A stretch of 32,000 bases of DNA from Candidatus Saccharimonadota bacterium. Its GTDB lineage: Bacteria; Pseudomonadota; Gammaproteobacteria; Burkholderiales; Burkholderiaceae. The stretch covers positions 1 through 32,000 of the forward strand of contig CP002161.1 of assembly GCA_000147015.1 (NCBI GenBank), written 5' to 3'. This document shows positions 5,312 through 20,223 of the stretch, piece after piece. The notes below the pieces were generated by a model that made no database searches, was not told the DNA's origin, and saw only the letters and a program-made list of their open reading frames with translations. A program made the position numbers and the translations under genes. Within the stretch, counting starts at the first letter, position 1. Every line of letters begins with the position of its first letter.

Positions 5312-6842
<1,531 letters not shown>

Positions 6843-11944: not shown

Positions 11945-12905
11945 TAAAATTTATTTAAAATATTAATAATAATTTATATTTATAATAAAAAATAATTTTT
12001 ATTAAAAATAATTAATGGAAAATAATAAATTATTTTGAAATTAGTTTAATAATAATTTAATAATATTAAAAATAATTATTTTAAAATTTATTTATTAATA
12101 ATTTATATAATTTATTTCAAATTATAAAAATACTATTTGAATTATATTATTTTTTTTTTATTAAAAATAATTTTAATTTAATTAATAAATTTTTAATAAT
12201 AGTTAAAAATTGGTTTAGTAATAATTTATTTATTTAATTTAGATAATAAATAATTTTTATTATATATTAAAATAAAAATTAGTTTAAAATTTATTAATAT
12301 ATAATTATTAATAAAAAATAATTTTTTTAAAATAATTAATGGAAAATAATAATTAATTTTAAATTGGTTTAGTAATAATTTATTTATTTAATTTAAATAA
12401 TAATAATAATTTTTATTATAATATTAAAAAATAATTATTTTAAAATTTATTTATTAATAATTTATATAATTTATTTAAAATTATAAAATATATTAATTTT
12501 TTTTTATTAAAAATAATTTTAATTTAATTAATAAATTTTTAATAATGTTAAAAATTGGTTTAGTAATAATTTATTTAATTTAGATAATAAATAATTTTAT
12601 TATATATTAAATAAATAATTAGTTAAAATTTATTCATATATAATTTTTAATTAATAAAAAATAATTTTTATTAAAATAATTAATGGAAAATAATAATTAA
12701 TTTTAAATTGGTTTAGTAATAATTTATTTATTTAATTTAAAATAATAAATAATTTTTATTATAATATTAAAAAATAATTATTTTAAAATTTATTTATTAA
12801 TAATTTATATAATTTATTTAAAATTATAAAAATACTATTTGAATTATATTATATATTAATTTTTTTTTATTAAAAATAATTTTAATTTAATTAATAAATT
12901 TTTAA
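11945..12905. repeat. tandem array, about 2.7 copies of a 325-345-bp A/T-only unit with a nested half-unit repeat
   Basis: The anchor taattaatGGaaaataataa has its GG at 12017, 12341 and 12685. The anchor attggtttagtaataattta starts at 12209, 12363, 12554 and 12707. Copies 2 and 3 are identical for 55 nt from 12341/12685. Copies differ mainly by short indels. Boundaries are approximate. Confidence 0.85.
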
Positions 12906-12942
12906 ATATATATATTACTTTTATATATATATTATTTTAATT

Positions 12943-12980
12943 ATATAAATTATATACATATTAAAGTATATAATTTATAT
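12943..12980. repeat. 15-bp perfect inverted repeat at the distal end of the repeat array
   Basis: atataaattatatac (12943-12957) and gtatataatttatat (12966-12980) are reverse complements separated by an 8-nt loop. The TA-rich context makes chance palindromes likely. Confidence 0.35.
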
Positions 12981-13156
12981 TAATTATTTTATTTTTTTAA
13001 AAATAAAAAATGAAAAAATTTTTTAAAAAAAGTTTAATTGAAATAAGTAAATTAAACTATAATATTATTATATTTTTTAATAATATTAAAAAAAATATAT
13101 TTAGTAAAATACTAAATATTAATAATATTTTAAATTTTTTTTATTAAAATAATAAT

Positions 13157-13693
13157 ATGAAAAAATTATATGCTACTACAATATTATCTGTTAGAATAGG
13201 AAAAAAAGTTGCTTTAGGAGGTGATGGTCAAGTAACTTTAGGTAATACTATTATAAAAGATAGAGCAAAAAAAATAAGAAAAATATATAATAATAAAATA
13301 TTAATAGGTATAGCTGGAGCTACTTCTGATGCATTTTCTTTATTAGATATGTTTGAAACAAAAGTAAAAATATTTAATGGTAATATTATAAAAGCAGCTG
13401 ATTGTTTATCTAAAGAATGAAGAGATAATAAAATATTTAGAAATTTAGAAGCTATGATATTAGTAGCAAATAAAAAAATAACTTTAATAATAACAGGTTT
13501 AGGTGATGTATTAGAACCTATAAATGGTATAGGAGCTATAGGTTCAGGAGGTATTTATGCACAATCTTCAGCTATGGCTTTAAAAGAAAATACTAATTTA
13601 AGTGCCTTTGAAATTGTTAAAAAATCTTTAAATATTGCAGGAAAATTATGTATTTATACAAATTTATTACATACTATAGAAACACTAGAATAG
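13157..13693 (+). CDS. hslV: ATP-dependent protease subunit HslV
   Basis: Track ORFs 13157..13420 and 13454..13693 share a frame, joined through TGA 13418-13420 at the conserved KDW-R Trp. [31 protein letters not shown] and CIYTN motifs are present. Confidence 0.93.
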
Positions 13694-13694
13694 A

Positions 13695-15045
13695 ATGTTA
13701 ACACCAATAGAAATATTAAATAAATTAAATAAAAAAGTTATAGGACAGGATTCAATTAAAAAAGCTATATCTATAGCACTTAGAAATCGTTGAACAAGAA
13801 TGAAATTACCTTATTATTTTAAAAAAAAAATATCTCCTAAAAATATTTTAATGATAGGTTCTACTGGAGTAGGAAAAACTGAAATTGCTAGAAGTTTAGC
13901 AAATATAATTAATGCTCCTTTTTTAAAAATAGAAGCTACAAAATTTACAGAAGTTGGTTATGTGGGTAGAGACGTTGAATCAATTATTAAAGAATTATTA
14001 GATATTTCTTTTAAAAAAACATTTTCTTTAGAATTAAAAAGATCTTTAAAAGAATCTTATAGAATTATTATAAATAGATTATTAAATATTATATTATTTG
14101 AAAATAAAATTTATGATTCTAAAATATATAATAAATTTGAATTATATTTAAAATCAAAAAAAATAAATGATTTAGAAGTTGAATTATTTTTTAATAAAAA
14201 AGGTAAATATTTTTTTAATACAAATAAATATTATGATAGATATTATTATATTAGAAATATATATGATACGCAAAAATAATTATTATAATAGATATTATTA
14301 TATTAGAAATATATATGATACGTATAATTATTTTAAAAAAAATAAAATTTTAATTAAATTCAAAAAAATATTTGATTTTTTTATTAAAAAAAAAATTGTT
14401 AAAATAATAAATTTAGATAATTTAAAGTATAATGCAATAAAAAATGTTGAAAATAATGGTATTGTTTTTATAGATGAAATTGATAAAATAGCAAATAAAA
14501 ATACTTATAATAATGATGTATCTAGAACTGGTGTTCAAAGAGATTTATTATGTTTAGTAGAAGGTACTAATGTTAATACAAAATATGGTATTATTAATAC
14601 TAATCATATTTTATTTATTGCTGCTGGAGCATTTCATCTTTCTGATCCTTCTGATTTATTACCAGAGTTACAAGGAAGATTTCCAATTAGAGTTGAATTA
14701 AATAATTTAACTATTGAAGATTTTAAAAATATTTTAAAAAAAACTAAGTTTAATTTAATAAAACAATATAGATATTTATTAAAATGTGAAGGTGTTAAAT
14801 TAAATTTTACAAATGAAGCTATAAATAAAGTTTCTGAAATTTCTTATAATTTAAATAAAAAAGTTCAAAATTTAGGTGCTCGTAGATTATTTGAAATTTT
14901 AGAAAGAATTTTAGAAAGTATTTATTTTAATAATTTTGAATTAAAAAATTTAAATATAACTATAGATGAAAAATATATAATTGATTTTTTTAATAATAAT
15001 ATTAAAAAAAAAGATAAAAAAGATTATTATAAATATATTTTATAA
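13695..15045 (+). pseudogene. hslU: ATP-dependent protease ATPase subunit HslU, interrupted by a +1 frameshift
   Basis: The N-terminal part (ATG 13695, TGA-Trp 13791 in LRNRW, Walker [13 protein letters not shown]) ends at TAA 14277-14279. The C-terminal part (Walker B IVFIDEIDKI, VQRDLL, ELQGRFPIRVEL, GARRL) is the +1 frame of track ORF 14179..15045. The peptide YY(D/N)[11 protein letters not shown] is encoded in both frames by a 52-nt tandem duplication. Deleting 14271-14322 gives one 432-aa ORF. Confidence 0.85.
14221..14322 (+). repeat. tandem duplication (50 + 52 nt) inside hslU
   Basis: Copy 1 is 14221-14270 and copy 2 is 14271-14322. The cores 14229-14270 and 14281-14322 are 41/42 identical at a 52-nt offset. 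Confidence 0.9.
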
Positions 15046-16079
15046 TGTTATTCAAAGATAAATATAATTTAAAATTTAAATATTCTAAATTATTAAAATA
15101 TATTTTAATACAAAAAATAAAAAAAAAAAAATATTTAAAATTTTCTGAATTTATAAATATAATTTTATATAAAAAAAAAATAGGTTATTATAATAATTTT
15201 TTATTTTATAATAAAAAAGATTATTTAACAAGTTCTCAAATTTCTAATATTTTTACAATTTCTTTAGCTAATTTTTTTTTTTTTTTTTTAAAAAAAGAGT
15301 TTTGTAAAATATTAGAATTTGGAGGAGGTAATGGAAAATTTGCTTTTAATATTTTAAAAGAATTAAAAAAATTTAATTTATTTCCTAAATATTATATTAT
15401 AGAAAAATCTAGATATTTAAAAAATATTAAAAAAAAAAAATATAAAAATATAAAATGAATAAAAAAAATACCTAAAAATTTTTCTGGAATAATTTTTTTA
15501 AATGAAGTTTTAGATTCTATACCTTTTGATTTAATTATAAAAAATAATAATAATTACTATAATAGTAATATAATTATTAATAATGAATTAAATTTTGTTT
15601 TTAAAAATAAAAAAATAAATAAAAAATATTTAAGTTTTTTTATTAAAAATAGATATTATAATTTATATAAATTTATTAATAATATTTTTTTAAATATTAA
15701 AAATAATAAAAATATTATTATTATTATAGATTATGGTAATTTAAATAATTTTTATATAAAAAATAACTTTATGTGTTTTTATAAACATTTTTCTCATGGT
15801 AATCCATTTTCTTTCCCTGGTTTACAAGATATTACTAATTTTGTAAATTTTAAATTTATATTAAAATTAATAGTTAAATATAAATTTAAAATTTTAAATT
15901 TTTCTAATCAAGAAAATTTTATTTTAAATATTGGAATATTAGATTTTTTAAAAAAAAAAAAATATAATAAAATTAAATATTTTAATAAAATTAATTTTTT
16001 AAAAAAAATTATTTTACCTTATGAAATGGGTGAAATTTTTAAAGTTCTAATTTTAGGAAATAAAATTAATATTTATTAA
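15045..16079 (+). CDS. class I SAM-dependent methyltransferase, MidA/NDUFAF7 (DUF185, COG1565) family
   Basis: Track ORFs 15045..15458 and 15771..16079 share a frame, joined through TGA 15456. Family-like motifs: IGYYNN, LEFGGGNGKFA, IIEKS, W..IP, FLNEVLDSIP, IIDYG, GLQDITNFVNF, GEIFKVL. The ATG overlaps the hslU stop (TAATG). Confidence 0.6.
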
Positions 16080-16094
16080 TAATTTTATAATATA

Positions 16095-16541
16095 ATGAAT
16101 AAAGTAAAGGGTTTATTAATTATTTCTTGTTATAATAATAAATTATGTAGTTTATTATTAGAAAGTATATTTAAACATATGATTATTTATAAAATAAATG
16201 AAAAAAATTTAATATATTTAAAAATTCCAGGATCTTTAGAATTTTCATGAATTATTAAAAAATTATTAAATTTTAATTTTATAAATTTTATATTTGTATT
16301 AGGTATAATAATAAAAGGTAAAACAATTCATTATAAATTAGTATCTAATATTTCTTATTATTATATTAATAAATTATCTTATAATATTAATATTCCTTTA
16401 ATAAATTTGTTAATTACTATAAATAATGTAAATCAATTTTTAAATCGTATTAAATATAATATTTTAAATTCTATATATAATATTTTAAAGATTTCAAATT
16501 TAAATAAAATATTATTATGAGAATTACAACAAATAAACTAA
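16095..16541 (+). CDS. ribH: 6,7-dimethyl-8-ribityllumazine synthase
   Basis: Hand translation from ATG 16095 with TGA read as Trp. IPGSLEFS, VLGIIIKGKTIHYKLV and IPLINLLIT parallel VPGA.ELP, ALG.VIRG.T.H..YV and IPV..GVLT of RibH. TAA at 16539-16541. Overlaps the next gene by 25 nt. Confidence 0.75.
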
Positions 16542-17017
16542 TAAAAAATATATTTGATTTTATAAATATATTATTATTAAAAAAAAATTGAAATTGTTTA
16601 TTTTTTTTAGATTTATTTTTTGGATATGGTAATTTTATTAAAAAAATTTATAAAAAAAAATTATCATATATTTTAATAATAGAAAAAAGTAATTTTAAAA
16701 TAAATATATTTAAAAATAAGAAATATGATATTAAAATTATTAAAAATAATAGTTTTTTTTTTTTAAAAAAAAAAATAAAAAAAAATTATTTTAAAAAATT
16801 TAATATTATTTTTATTGATCCACCTTTTTACAATAAATTTATATTTAAATTAATTTATTATTTAAATATTATTTGTTTTAAAAATACTATAATAATTTTA
16901 GAAATTGAAAAAAAAATATTTTATAATAATATTTATATTTTTTTTAGAAATTGAAAAATAATTAAAATAAATAAAATAGGTATTGTTTATTTATTTTTAT
17001 TATTTAAATTTAATTAA
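16517..17017 (+). CDS. rsmD: RsmD-like 16S rRNA (guanine966-N2)-methyltransferase
   Basis: Hand translation from ATG 16517 with two TGA-Trp. FLDLFFGYGNF (SAM-binding LD.F.G.G) and IIFIDPPF (DPPF/Y catalytic motif). TAA at 17015-17017. Confidence 0.55.
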
Positions 17018-17318
17018 AAATTTATAATATAAATTTTATTTTATTTTTAAAATTAAATAATAATTTTTATTATTTAAATTATTAATTTGTAATATATTTT
17101 ATAATTCAATTGTTAAATTAATAAACTTTTAATATATTTATTTTTGATTTAAATCTAAGTCAATGAGTTTTAATATTTAAATTTAAAAAAAAATTATTAA
17201 AATATAAAAATAAATAATTAATATATTAAATTTTTTTAAATTAATAATTTATATTGATTTATTAAATATAAATAATTTTAATTATTTATATCTTATTATT
17301 AAATAAATATATAAAAAT

Positions 17319-17391
17319 TCCTTGATAACTCAGTTGGTAGAGTGATGGACTGTTAATCCATTTGTCCCTGGTTCAAATACAGGTCAAGGAG
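17319..17391 (+). tRNA. tRNA-Asn (anticodon GUU)
   Basis: TCCTTGATAACTCAGTTGGTAGAGTGATGGACTGTTAATCCATTTGTCCCTGGTTCAAATACAGGTCAAGGAG. The acceptor stem TCCTTGA/TCAAGGA is perfect and the anticodon loop is CTGTTAA. No CCA is encoded. Confidence 0.9.
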
Positions 17392-17536
17392 TTTTAAATT
17401 TAATATAGGATAAATTATTAAAATAAATAATAAAATAATTATTAAAAATAAATAATTATTTTTATTATTAAAAATTTATAGATATATTAATTATAATATT
17501 TTATTATTTAATTTTTATTATAAAATTATTTTTAAA

Positions 17537-18265
17537 ATGAAAAAAATATATAAATTACATTTAAAATCTAAATATAAATGAAATAAAAAATTAATTACTA
17601 TAAAATTATTTAAACCTATAAATTTTTTATTTAAACCAGGTAATTTTACTCAATTAGGAGTTTTAAAAAATAAAAAAATAATTTGAAAATCATATTCTAT
17701 TTCTTCTAATTTAAATAATAAAAATTTAGAATTTTGTATTTATATAGTTGGTAAATTTACTAATATTTTAAATATTTTAAAAATAGGAAATATAATATAT
17801 ATGAAAAAAAAAACATATGGTTTTGTTTCATTAGATAATTTAAAAAAATTTGGTAATTTATGAATGATATGTACTGGTTCAGCTTTAGGAATTTTTATTT
17901 CTATTATTAATCAAAATAATGTTTGAAAATATTTTATTAATATTATAATTTTACATTTTGTTAAATATAAAAAAGAATTTTCTTATTTTAAAATAATATT
18001 TAATTTATATAAAAAAAATAGTTTTTTATTAAAAAAAAATTTTTATTTTTTTCAAAATATTATAAGAAAAAAAAAAATAAATAATTTAAAAAATAATTAT
18101 TTTAAAAAAAAATTTGATTTAAAAATAAAAAAAAATATATCTAAATTTATAATTTGTGGTAAACCTAATATATTAAAAAAAATAAAAAATATTTTAATAA
18201 ATAAAAACTTAAAATTATGTAAATTTAATTATAAAGGTGATATAATTATTGAAAATTTTTGGTAA
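17537..18265 (+). CDS. fpr: ferredoxin--NADP(+) reductase
   Basis: Hand translation from ATG 17537 with about 5 in-frame TGA-Trp. FKPGNFTQLG, W-KSYSISS (R.YS motif position), LWMICTGSALG, ICGKPNIL and the C-terminal ENFW parallel E. coli Fpr (ends EHYW). The last Trp uses TGG (18260-18262). TAA at 18263-18265. Confidence 0.7.
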
Positions 18266-18266
18266 T

Positions 18267-19682
18267 ATGTCTAAATATAATTTTTTATGATATGATTATG
18301 AAACATTTAATTTAAATAAAAATTTTACTTTTCCTTCTCAATTTGCATCTATTAGAACAAATTTAAATTTAAAAATTATTAAAAAATATAAAATTATTTA
18401 TTGTAAACCAGATGGTAGTTTTATGCCATGTCCTAAATCTATATTATTAAATAAAATTTTACCACAATATTGTGAAAAATATGGTATTAAAGAATATAAA
18501 TTTGCAAATAAAATAAATAAAATTATGTTAAAACCTTATACAATTAATATAGGATATAATAATATTAATTTTGATGATATAATAACTAGATTTTTATTTT
18601 GAAGAAATTTATTAAACCCTTATGAAAGAGAATGAAAAAATAAATGTAGTACTTATGATTTTTTTAATATTATTAAAATAATATATTTTATAAATTATAA
18701 TTCATTAAAATGATTTAAAAAAAAAAATAAAAAAATCAGTTTTAAATTAAGTGATATAAGTAAAATAAATGGATATTTAAATAAATTTTTTCATAATGCA
18801 TTATTTGATGTTAATGCCACTTTATTTTGTGCTAAAATAATAAAAAAGAAAAATTTTAAATTATTTTATAAATTTATTAAATTAAGAAATAAGAAAAATA
18901 TTATTAAAAATATTTTATTTAAAAAAAAAGTATTTTTATATTTATCTAATAAATATCCTTTTTTTGAAAAAGAAATTTTTATACTTTTACCTTTATTTAT
19001 TGATAATAAAAATAAAAATAAATTAATATGTTTAAATATAAATTCGAATTTTAATAATTTTTTTGATTTTAAAAAAAAATATAATTTTAAAAAAATAAAT
19101 AATTATATTAAAATAATAAATATTAATAAATATCCTATAATATTTTTTAATATTAAGAAGATATTAAAAAAAATTAATTTTAAAATTAATTTTAATTTAA
19201 TAAAAAAAAATATAACAAAAATAAATAATAATATAAAATTAATATTAAATATTTATAAAAAATTTAATTATAATTATAAATATAAAAAAATATTAAATAT
19301 AAATTTTGATTTATATAATAATTTTTTTATTAGTTTAAATGATAAATATAATATTAAAATTATAAAAAAATTAAATATAAATAAAATTCATAATAAAAAA
19401 TTTTATTTTTATAATAATAATATTAAAATATTATGTTTTTTTTATAAATTAAAAAAATATAAAAAATATATTTCTAATTTTGAAAAAAAAATTTGAATAA
19501 AATATTGTAAAATTAATTTATTAAAAAATTATAATAATGAATTAAATTTTTTTGAAAAATTATTTTATATTAAAAAAAAATATTTAAAATGTTCTAATAA
19601 ATATAAAAAAAAAATATTATATTTTTTAATAAATTATGCAAGAAAAATAAATCCTTTTAATAATGATATTAATGATTGATAA
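18267..19682 (+). CDS. sbcB: exodeoxyribonuclease I
   Basis: Hand translation from ATG 18267 with about 7 in-frame TGA-Trp; absent from the ORF track because of those TGAs. FLWYDYETFN, PSQFASIRT, GYNNINFDDIITRFLFWRN..NPYEREW and HNALFDVNAT match the ExoI exonuclease motifs (HDYETFG, P.QFA.IRT, YNN..FDDE.TR..FYRN..DPY, H.A..DV.AT). Ends ..NDINDW, TAA 19680-19682. Confidence 0.75.
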
Positions 19683-20223
19683 TTATGATTCTTTTACTTA
19701 TAATATAGTTTATTACTTTAATGAATTAAATCATAAAGTTTTAGTTTATAGAAATGATGAAATATCTATAAATGAAATAAAAAAAATAAATCCAAATTAT
19801 ATTTGTTTATCTCCAGGACCCGGGGGACCTAAAAATTCTGGTATATGTATAAATATTGTTAAATATTTTTATAAAAAAATTCCTATTTTAGGAGTTTGTT
19901 TAGGTCATCAAGTTATAAATGAAGCATTTAATGGTAAAACTATAAAATCTAAAATTATAATGCATGGTAAAATTTCTAAAATATTTCATAAAAAAGAATA
20001 TATTTTTAAAAATATTAAAAATCCTTTTAATGCAATAAGATATAATTCTTTATCAATTGATAAAAATAAATTATCTAAATCTTTTAAAATTACTGCTTGA
20101 AGTAATAATAAAGAAATAATGGCCATAAGTCATAAAAAATATAATGTTCATGGTGTTCAATTTCATCCTGAATCTATATTATCTGAATATGGTCATAATA
20201 TATTAAAAAATTTTTTATATTAG
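19663..20223 (+). CDS. trpG: anthranilate synthase component II (glutamine amidotransferase TrpG)
   Basis: Track ORF 19663..20100 extended through TGA 20098 to TAG 20221-20223. [27 protein letters not shown] and HGVQFHPES (catalytic Cys/His/Glu) are present. Overlaps the sbcB 3' end by 20 nt. Confidence 0.9.

Follow-up and report, generated by a model that had tools for sequence, protein, structure and literature searches.

The hslU locus of Candidatus Zinderia insecticola CARI (positions 13695-15045) raises the question of whether a gene whose reading frame is shifted by +1 at an internal repeat can still be in use. This bacterium is a spittlebug symbiont with a published genome of 208,564 nucleotides and 202 protein genes, in which UGA is read as tryptophan (PMC2953269). 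The genome forms one contig of 208,564 bp, of which the window (the whole 32-kb stretch of DNA analysed here) represents bases 1-32000, and its G+C content is approximately 10-14% outside the rRNA operon. TGA codons are found at tryptophan positions, as in ...LRNRW (13791-13793), and reading the DNA with translation table 4 makes both hslV and the start of hslU continuous. RF1 is present and intact in the genome, and trmD was not found in it.

A 52-nt tandem duplication splits hslU between Walker A and Walker B

The 5' piece of hslU is read in frame 0 of the forward strand (13695..14279; 194 codons plus TAA) and encodes the Walker A motif GSTGVGKT, the pore loop GYVG, the first half of the I-domain and the first copy of the repeat. 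The initial annotation had placed the start of the gene at 13800; the true start is at 13695, because the TGA at 13791-13793 is a tryptophan codon under code 4. This piece matched positions 1-133 of the TIGR00390 hslU profile (167.7 bits) and aligned to residues 4-136 of E. coli HslU (E = 1e-39). The stop codon that closes it (TAA, 14277..14279, forward strand) was made by the frame shift, follows the residues ...NIYDTQK and stands in the context CAA AAA TAA T. The 3' piece is read in the +1 frame of the same strand, which is open from 14179 to 15045, and counts 260 codons from the ATG at 14263 (14263..15045). It carries Walker B (IVFIDEIDKI), sensor 1, PELQGRFPIRVEL, GARRL and the C-terminal YIL tail, encodes the peptides IFDFFIK and NVENNGIVFIDEIDK, and matched positions 207-439 of the same profile (296.8 bits) and residues 203-439 of Haemophilus influenzae HslU (E = 6e-64). 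An in-frame ATG at 14233 had been noted before and is confirmed, whereas the second one, at 14263, had been missed; it sits 14 nt upstream of the frame-0 stop, the overlap between the two pieces being 17 nt. Each piece scores below the cut-off of 362.45 bits that TIGR00390, an equivalog model, sets for a single polypeptide, and their summed score of 464 bits would pass it. Alignment to the invariant columns of 27 HslU homologues showed that Walker A, the GYVG pore loop, Walker B, sensor 1, the arginine finger, sensor 2 and the C-terminal tail ...KYIL are all present.

Tandem Repeats Finder described the repeat as having a period of 52 and 1.9 copies between 14222 and 14322 (95% matches, 0 indels, score 188), so that a recount of the offset again gives a number that is not a multiple of 3. 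When copy 1 (14222..14273, forward strand, 17 residues read in frame 0) is compared without gaps to copy 2 (14274..14325, forward strand, 17 residues read in the +1 frame), which follows it head to tail, 48 of the 52 positions are identical, the differences being at 14228, 14235, 14271 and 14273. The core of the repeat (14222-14270 versus 14274-14322) is identical at 47 of 49 positions and includes an exact run of 35 nt (14236-14270 = 14288-14322), and the junction between the two copies reads ...GATACGCAAAAATAATTATTATAATAG... The identity of 41/42 between 14229-14270 and 14281-14322 given in the initial annotation is correct; its 50-nt and 52-nt units, which differ by a 2-nt indel and 2 substitutions, come from aligning the 5' edge in another way. 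The indel is not required, and the net insertion is 52 nt in both alignments. The best self-match score of the region was 41, compared to 12.7 +/- 1.7 (maximum 18) in 200 dinucleotide shuffles, and the repeat is therefore not an effect of composition. A dispersed element was discarded, as the 35-nt core has two occurrences only and is not found elsewhere in the genome even when up to 5 mismatches are allowed.

Excision of any one 52-nt register leaves one open frame of 432 codons, in agreement with the earlier proposal that removal of one copy restores a protein of normal length. Deletion of one A at the junction gives instead ...DTQNNYYNR... and one open frame of 449 codons. The repeat, profile and alignment data together uphold the view that a 52-nt tandem duplication in the I-domain breaks hslU in two, with Walker A on one side of the break and Walker B on the other.

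The hslU repeat ranks fourth in strength among the tandem repeats of the genome and is the only one within a gene, the three stronger ones (a 343-nt unit, a 131-nt unit and a duplicated tRNA-Phe) being all intergenic. The repeat with the 343-nt unit extends over 12060-12905 and that with the 131-nt unit over genome positions 35062-35504 (3.4 copies, 93% alike), and tRNA-Phe(GAA) occurs twice in tandem at genome positions 148231-148400 within a 96-nt repeat (97% alike). The 131-nt and 343-nt repeats show that the Zinderia genome actively mutates by tandem duplication.

The duplication is present in the symbiont population

The 2010 genome was built from 59-nt Illumina reads (velvet, k = 41) and 454 Titanium reads of approximately 378 nt, with Sanger closure (PMC2953269). 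Independent evidence comes from two contigs of the Logan assembly (k = 31) of run SRR29904085, namely L102, which corresponds to 12876-14265 and is on record in a second sample too, and L103, which corresponds to 14293-19691; both are 100% identical to the reference stretch. The last 31-mer containing the copy-1-specific G at 14235 ends at 14265 and the first containing the copy-2-specific T at 14323 starts at 14293, and both contig ends hence coincide to the base with the predictions of a two-copy 31-mer graph. From this match it follows that reads about 14 years younger than the reference contain the two paths that lead into the core as well as the two that lead out of it. A SNP bubble was rejected as the cause of the contig breaks, since L102 is unbranched through 14216-14235. 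The lesion shows what is expected of a slipped-strand duplication, that is, a period that is not a multiple of 3, absence from homologues and contig breaks that fit two copies. The duplication is truly present in the symbiont population, and we regard this as close to certain.

The sequencing or assembly error that the initial annotation had listed among its explanations is accordingly very unlikely: an artefact of 2010, such as the head-to-tail joining of two contig ends that share an overlap of about 50 nt, could have entered when velvet and Newbler contigs obtained from amplified DNA were merged with phrap (PMC2953269), but it is largely refuted and deserves hardly any credence, because the 2024 contigs break at both predicted positions exactly as a two-copy structure requires, the copies differ at 2-4 sites and the 35-nt exact core is shorter than the velvet k of 41, which makes that assembly unambiguous at the repeat.

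The duplicated segment falls in a predicted flexible loop of the I-domain

In the alignment with the 27 homologues, the two-copy HslU presents approximately 14-17 extra residues exactly at the segment ...PPGMEEMTxQIxxMF... of other HslU proteins, and a matching insertion was found in none of them. Residues 177-212 of E. coli HslU constitute a segment of the I-domain that is disordered in crystals and able to plug the axial channel (PMC7849044). The 17 duplicated codons of Zinderia align to this dynamic, autoinhibitory region and are likewise predicted to be disordered; unlike the E. coli protein, Zinderia has a sequence rich in Tyr, Asn and Ile in place of PPGMEEMTxQIxxMF, and has it twice, in two frames. 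An AlphaFold model of the 449-aa product of a +1 read-through (mean pLDDT 71.8) has an AAA+ core that folds and a stretch of low confidence (pLDDT < 50) at residues 166-216, within which the two copies occupy 177-192 and 194-209. Judging from this model and from the disorder of the E. coli segment, a split or an insertion at the disordered loop of the I-domain would be structurally plausible.

The only close relative of this HslU that we found is UPI000857CF75 of UniParc, a 263-aa fragment that is 76% identical to it, and the 17-aa repeat was not seen at its homologous site. The insertion being absent from this fragment and from the homologues, we infer that the duplication arose in the CARI lineage. 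UPI000857CF75 has no start methionine and begins (NYYYDENG...) exactly at the site homologous to the repeat, and its contig may be broken there for a similar reason. No DNA record was found for this fragment. None of 30 relatives proved to have a genome from the same genus; a scan of genome contigs yielded HslU from distant Bacteroidota and other distant HslU only, a scan of metagenome contigs no match to UPI000857CF75, searches with HslV and with the N-terminal piece no close relative, and the plasmid collection only distant hslVU. In the literature we found no paper that names hslU together with Zinderia and none on the hslU lesion, and the genome paper contains no discussion of pseudogenes (PMC2953269).

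HslUV and the protease inventory of Zinderia

The gene for the peptidase partner, hslV (13157..13693, forward strand), encodes 178 amino acids with one TGA read as tryptophan and is intact, as had been proposed: it scores well above the model cut-off (235.8 bits against NF003964, whose cut-off is 137, and 223 bits against TIGR03692). It lies immediately upstream of hslU in an hslVU operon arrangement, ending 1 nt before the hslU start, and its product is 62-65% identical to HslV of free-living Burkholderiales. Models of clpX, clpP, lon and ftsH run against the whole genome matched the hslU pieces only, and HslUV is thus the sole ATP-dependent protease of the genome. The absence of ftsH is notable even among tiny genomes. 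Two reduced relatives retain an intact hslVU, and a third relative, with a genome of about 200 kb (G005), has clpX and no hslVU, from which it follows that this protease can be lost.

Among NCBI-sourced proteins we found the product of the neighbouring gene and none of the possible hslU products of 194, 288, 270, 260 or 432 amino acids, so that hslU is probably not annotated as coding in the public record. The exact 178-aa HslV is on record from one Logan contig only and is missing from NCBI, UniRef and nr; the neighbouring 344-aa MidA-like protein is present in all three. It may be that hslV is also missing from the public annotation, or that it is annotated with other limits.

Age of the lesion and decay of the two halves

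With 2-4 positions at which the copies differ, the lesion must be of some age, provided that the copies started out identical. Counting either 2 sites in the 49-nt core or 4 in the 52 nt, the neutral divergence since the duplication would be approximately 1-2% per site, an estimate that is based on these 2-4 differences only and on the premises of initially identical copies and of mutation at the genomic rate. At such divergence, the 1,347 coding bases would have taken up about 30-54 substitutions, and 9.4% of random substitutions in the hslU sequence create TAA or TAG. The probability that both halves stayed free of stops under neutral drift is then 0.12 (2 differences in 49 nt) or 0.03 (4 in 52 nt), counting substitutions only and leaving aside both indels in the 11 homopolymers of at least 7 nt and the intact state of hslV. 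Examination of the two halves revealed no further stops or indels in either. In a relative-rate count against UPI000857CF75, the changes specific to each lineage at conserved columns were 7 in CARI versus 7, and 2 versus 1 at columns conserved at 95% or more. These comparisons lend modest support to the idea that selection may have remained at work on both halves since the frame broke.

Taking these results with the gene context, the reading that we favour is that the lesion is real and hslU would still be used in some form, to which we give a probability of about 0.48; once the lesion is accepted as real, continued use of the gene appears slightly better than an even bet against its being dead.

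The most serious competitor, to which we concede a substantial though smaller share of belief, is that hslU is plainly a young pseudogene, inactivated by the duplication, in which the intact halves and the intact hslV reflect the short time elapsed since the event and the differences between the copies arose in the duplication event itself or through a locally raised mutation rate. Inactivation is the default outcome for frameshifted genes in shrinking symbiont genomes, and it would agree with the loss of hslVU in G005, with the absence of hslU products from NCBI-sourced proteins and with the failure to find a recoding signal at the locus (an RNA fold with z = -0.74, no Rfam match, no long homopolymer in the overlap). 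It has to contend, however, with the low probability of finding both halves open if the 2-4 differences measure neutral time (0.03-0.12, and lower when indels and hslV are considered), with the membership of hslU in the sole AAA+ protease of the genome, with a partner gene that is fully intact and conserved, and with conserved sites that show no excess of change.

A mixed population is improbable. In such a population, polyploid cells would harbour two-copy genomes together with intact single-copy genomes, the latter supplying the 432-aa HslU. Tandem repeats with an exact core of 35 nt are prone to slippage, by which one copy could be lost, and a single-copy allele would be invisible in the contigs because it adds no new 31-mers (with one core only, the path between 14235 and 14323 measures 37 nt). 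Yet the 2010 consensus carries two copies (PMC2953269), no intact hslU product of CARI is present in the protein collection, and the interval from about 2010 to 2024 should have let intact genomes, if favoured, replace the others.

Less credible still is an older in-frame duplication of 51 nt (17 amino acids) followed by a recent insertion of one base in the A run of the junction (AAAA to AAAAA, 14272-14276): it would account for diverged copies next to intact halves by making the frame error much younger than the repeat, and one deleted A does open the 449-codon frame, but the extra base must fall within 14271-14274, a target of 4 nt in a 1.35-kb gene that contains 11 much longer homopolymers.

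Routes by which hslU might still be used

A duplication of about 52 nt, of the slipped-strand type, took place within hslU of Zinderia insecticola CARI. Standard decoding ends at the TAA at 14277-14279 and gives the 194-aa N-terminal piece with Walker A and the pore loop, and Walker B, the sensors, the arginine finger and the tail that activates HslV are all in the other frame. Under continued use of hslU, which is the reading we favour, the likeliest route to the latter would be termination at 14277 and restart at the ATG at 14263, giving a 260-aa C-terminal piece that would assemble with the N-terminal piece around the split flexible loop. The AAA+ fold could form even so from two chains, since the loop in which they are cut is a disordered one in E. 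coli HslU. The 3' end of the 16S rRNA (6820-6842) reads GGATTACATTT / ...GCGGCTGGATTACATTTTAA and misses the CCUCC core of the anti-Shine-Dalgarno, and hence no Shine-Dalgarno pairing is available to the ribosomes; gene calls near hslU overlap by 1 to 25 nt. A restart at 14263, close to the stop, in a genome without Shine-Dalgarno pairing and with overlapping genes nearby, is plausible as far as these sequence features can indicate.

We came across no HslU, nor any other AAA+ unfoldase, that works in nature with Walker A on one chain and Walker B on another. Two GC-rich metagenome contigs considered as precedents for a split hslU were rejected, for they present one-base frame errors in different places that are likely assembly errors, and so were three other large metagenome or genome contigs in which hslU is distributed over 2-3 gene calls, these being likely assembly errors or ordinary pseudogenes, as judged from gene calls. 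The hslU pieces of all five contigs are broken in the I-domain region. Nanoarchaeum equitans offers natural split genes in a reduced genome, and the Zinderia gene resembles them in that a single protein would come in two parts, divided at a flexible linker; the pieces in N. equitans are, however, separate genes with their own starts and a conserved split, whereas the split in Zinderia is specific to its lineage, overlaps in the repeat and has a putative function.

An alternative in which ribosomes hop over 52 nt between matched codons would remake exactly the single-copy protein of 432 amino acids. For each codon of the core, the +1 frame has an identical one 52 nt further downstream, ACG 14268 and ACG 14320 being one such pair. 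The bypass of a 50-nt gap in translation of gene 60 of phage T4 (PMC5009743) is comparable in that the insert is of about 50 nt, identical codons flank it and a stop follows soon after the take-off region. Unlike gene 60, the stop in Zinderia lies two codons past the last matched codon instead of adjacent to it, no take-off stem-loop is predicted and no nascent-peptide signal is known for hslU. Either a naturally split AAA+ unfoldase produced by restart at 14263 or a 52-nt hop that remakes the 432-aa protein would, in our opinion, be a somewhat unlikely outcome. Such a hop would be the cellular equivalent of the gene 60 bypass.

Less likely than the restart would be a +1 shift at AAA-TAA, or slippage of the RNA polymerase, for instance through loss of one U from the T7 run during transcription, either of which would give a 449-aa protein with the 17-aa repeat in the loop. 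The sequence AAA TAA T at the frame-0 stop invites comparison with shifty stops of the prfB type and of the AAA-UAA type of Euplotes; RF1 is intact and trmD absent in the genome, and an anti-Shine-Dalgarno that could serve as stimulator is lacking. In E. coli, a TAA with T as the next base terminates strongly, and this speaks against +1 shifting at high efficiency. The RNA fold of 14200-14345 was no better than that of shuffled sequences (z = -0.74) and no Rfam family matched, which gives no support for a programmed event. With regard to slippage, runs of 9-10 or more are those that slip efficiently, and no A/T run of about 9 nt or more is found at the frame error: the longest run within 14179-14276 is T7 at 14210-14216, and the run at the junction is A5 (14272-14276). 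In frameshifted endosymbiont genes, slippage of the RNA polymerase at long poly(A) runs, which corrects the frame, reaches 12-50% (PMC5009743). The hslU gene is like those of Buchnera and Blochmannia (PMC5009743) in belonging to an AT-rich, vertically inherited symbiont and in having a broken frame with intact halves for which leaky correction is possible, and is unlike them in that its lesion is a 52-nt duplication rather than a homopolymer indel, T7 being its longest useful run.

Implications for the biology of Zinderia

That a tandem duplication disrupts a gene while a symbiont genome erodes is a type of event already known; the interest of this case resides in which gene was struck and in the hint that it continues to be used. 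Were hslU a young pseudogene, the locus would be an ordinary snapshot of gene loss, and a marker for dating and for population studies of the symbionts of Clastoptera. If the frame is corrected, the gene would be a case of tolerance to frame errors in tiny symbiont genomes that does not involve a homopolymer, and if the two halves work together, it would constitute a natural experiment in which an AAA+ ring assembles from chains that are interrupted after Walker A and before Walker B. Whether hslU is dead, split or recoded decides if the symbiont retains any control over its own protein turnover or depends wholly on its host.
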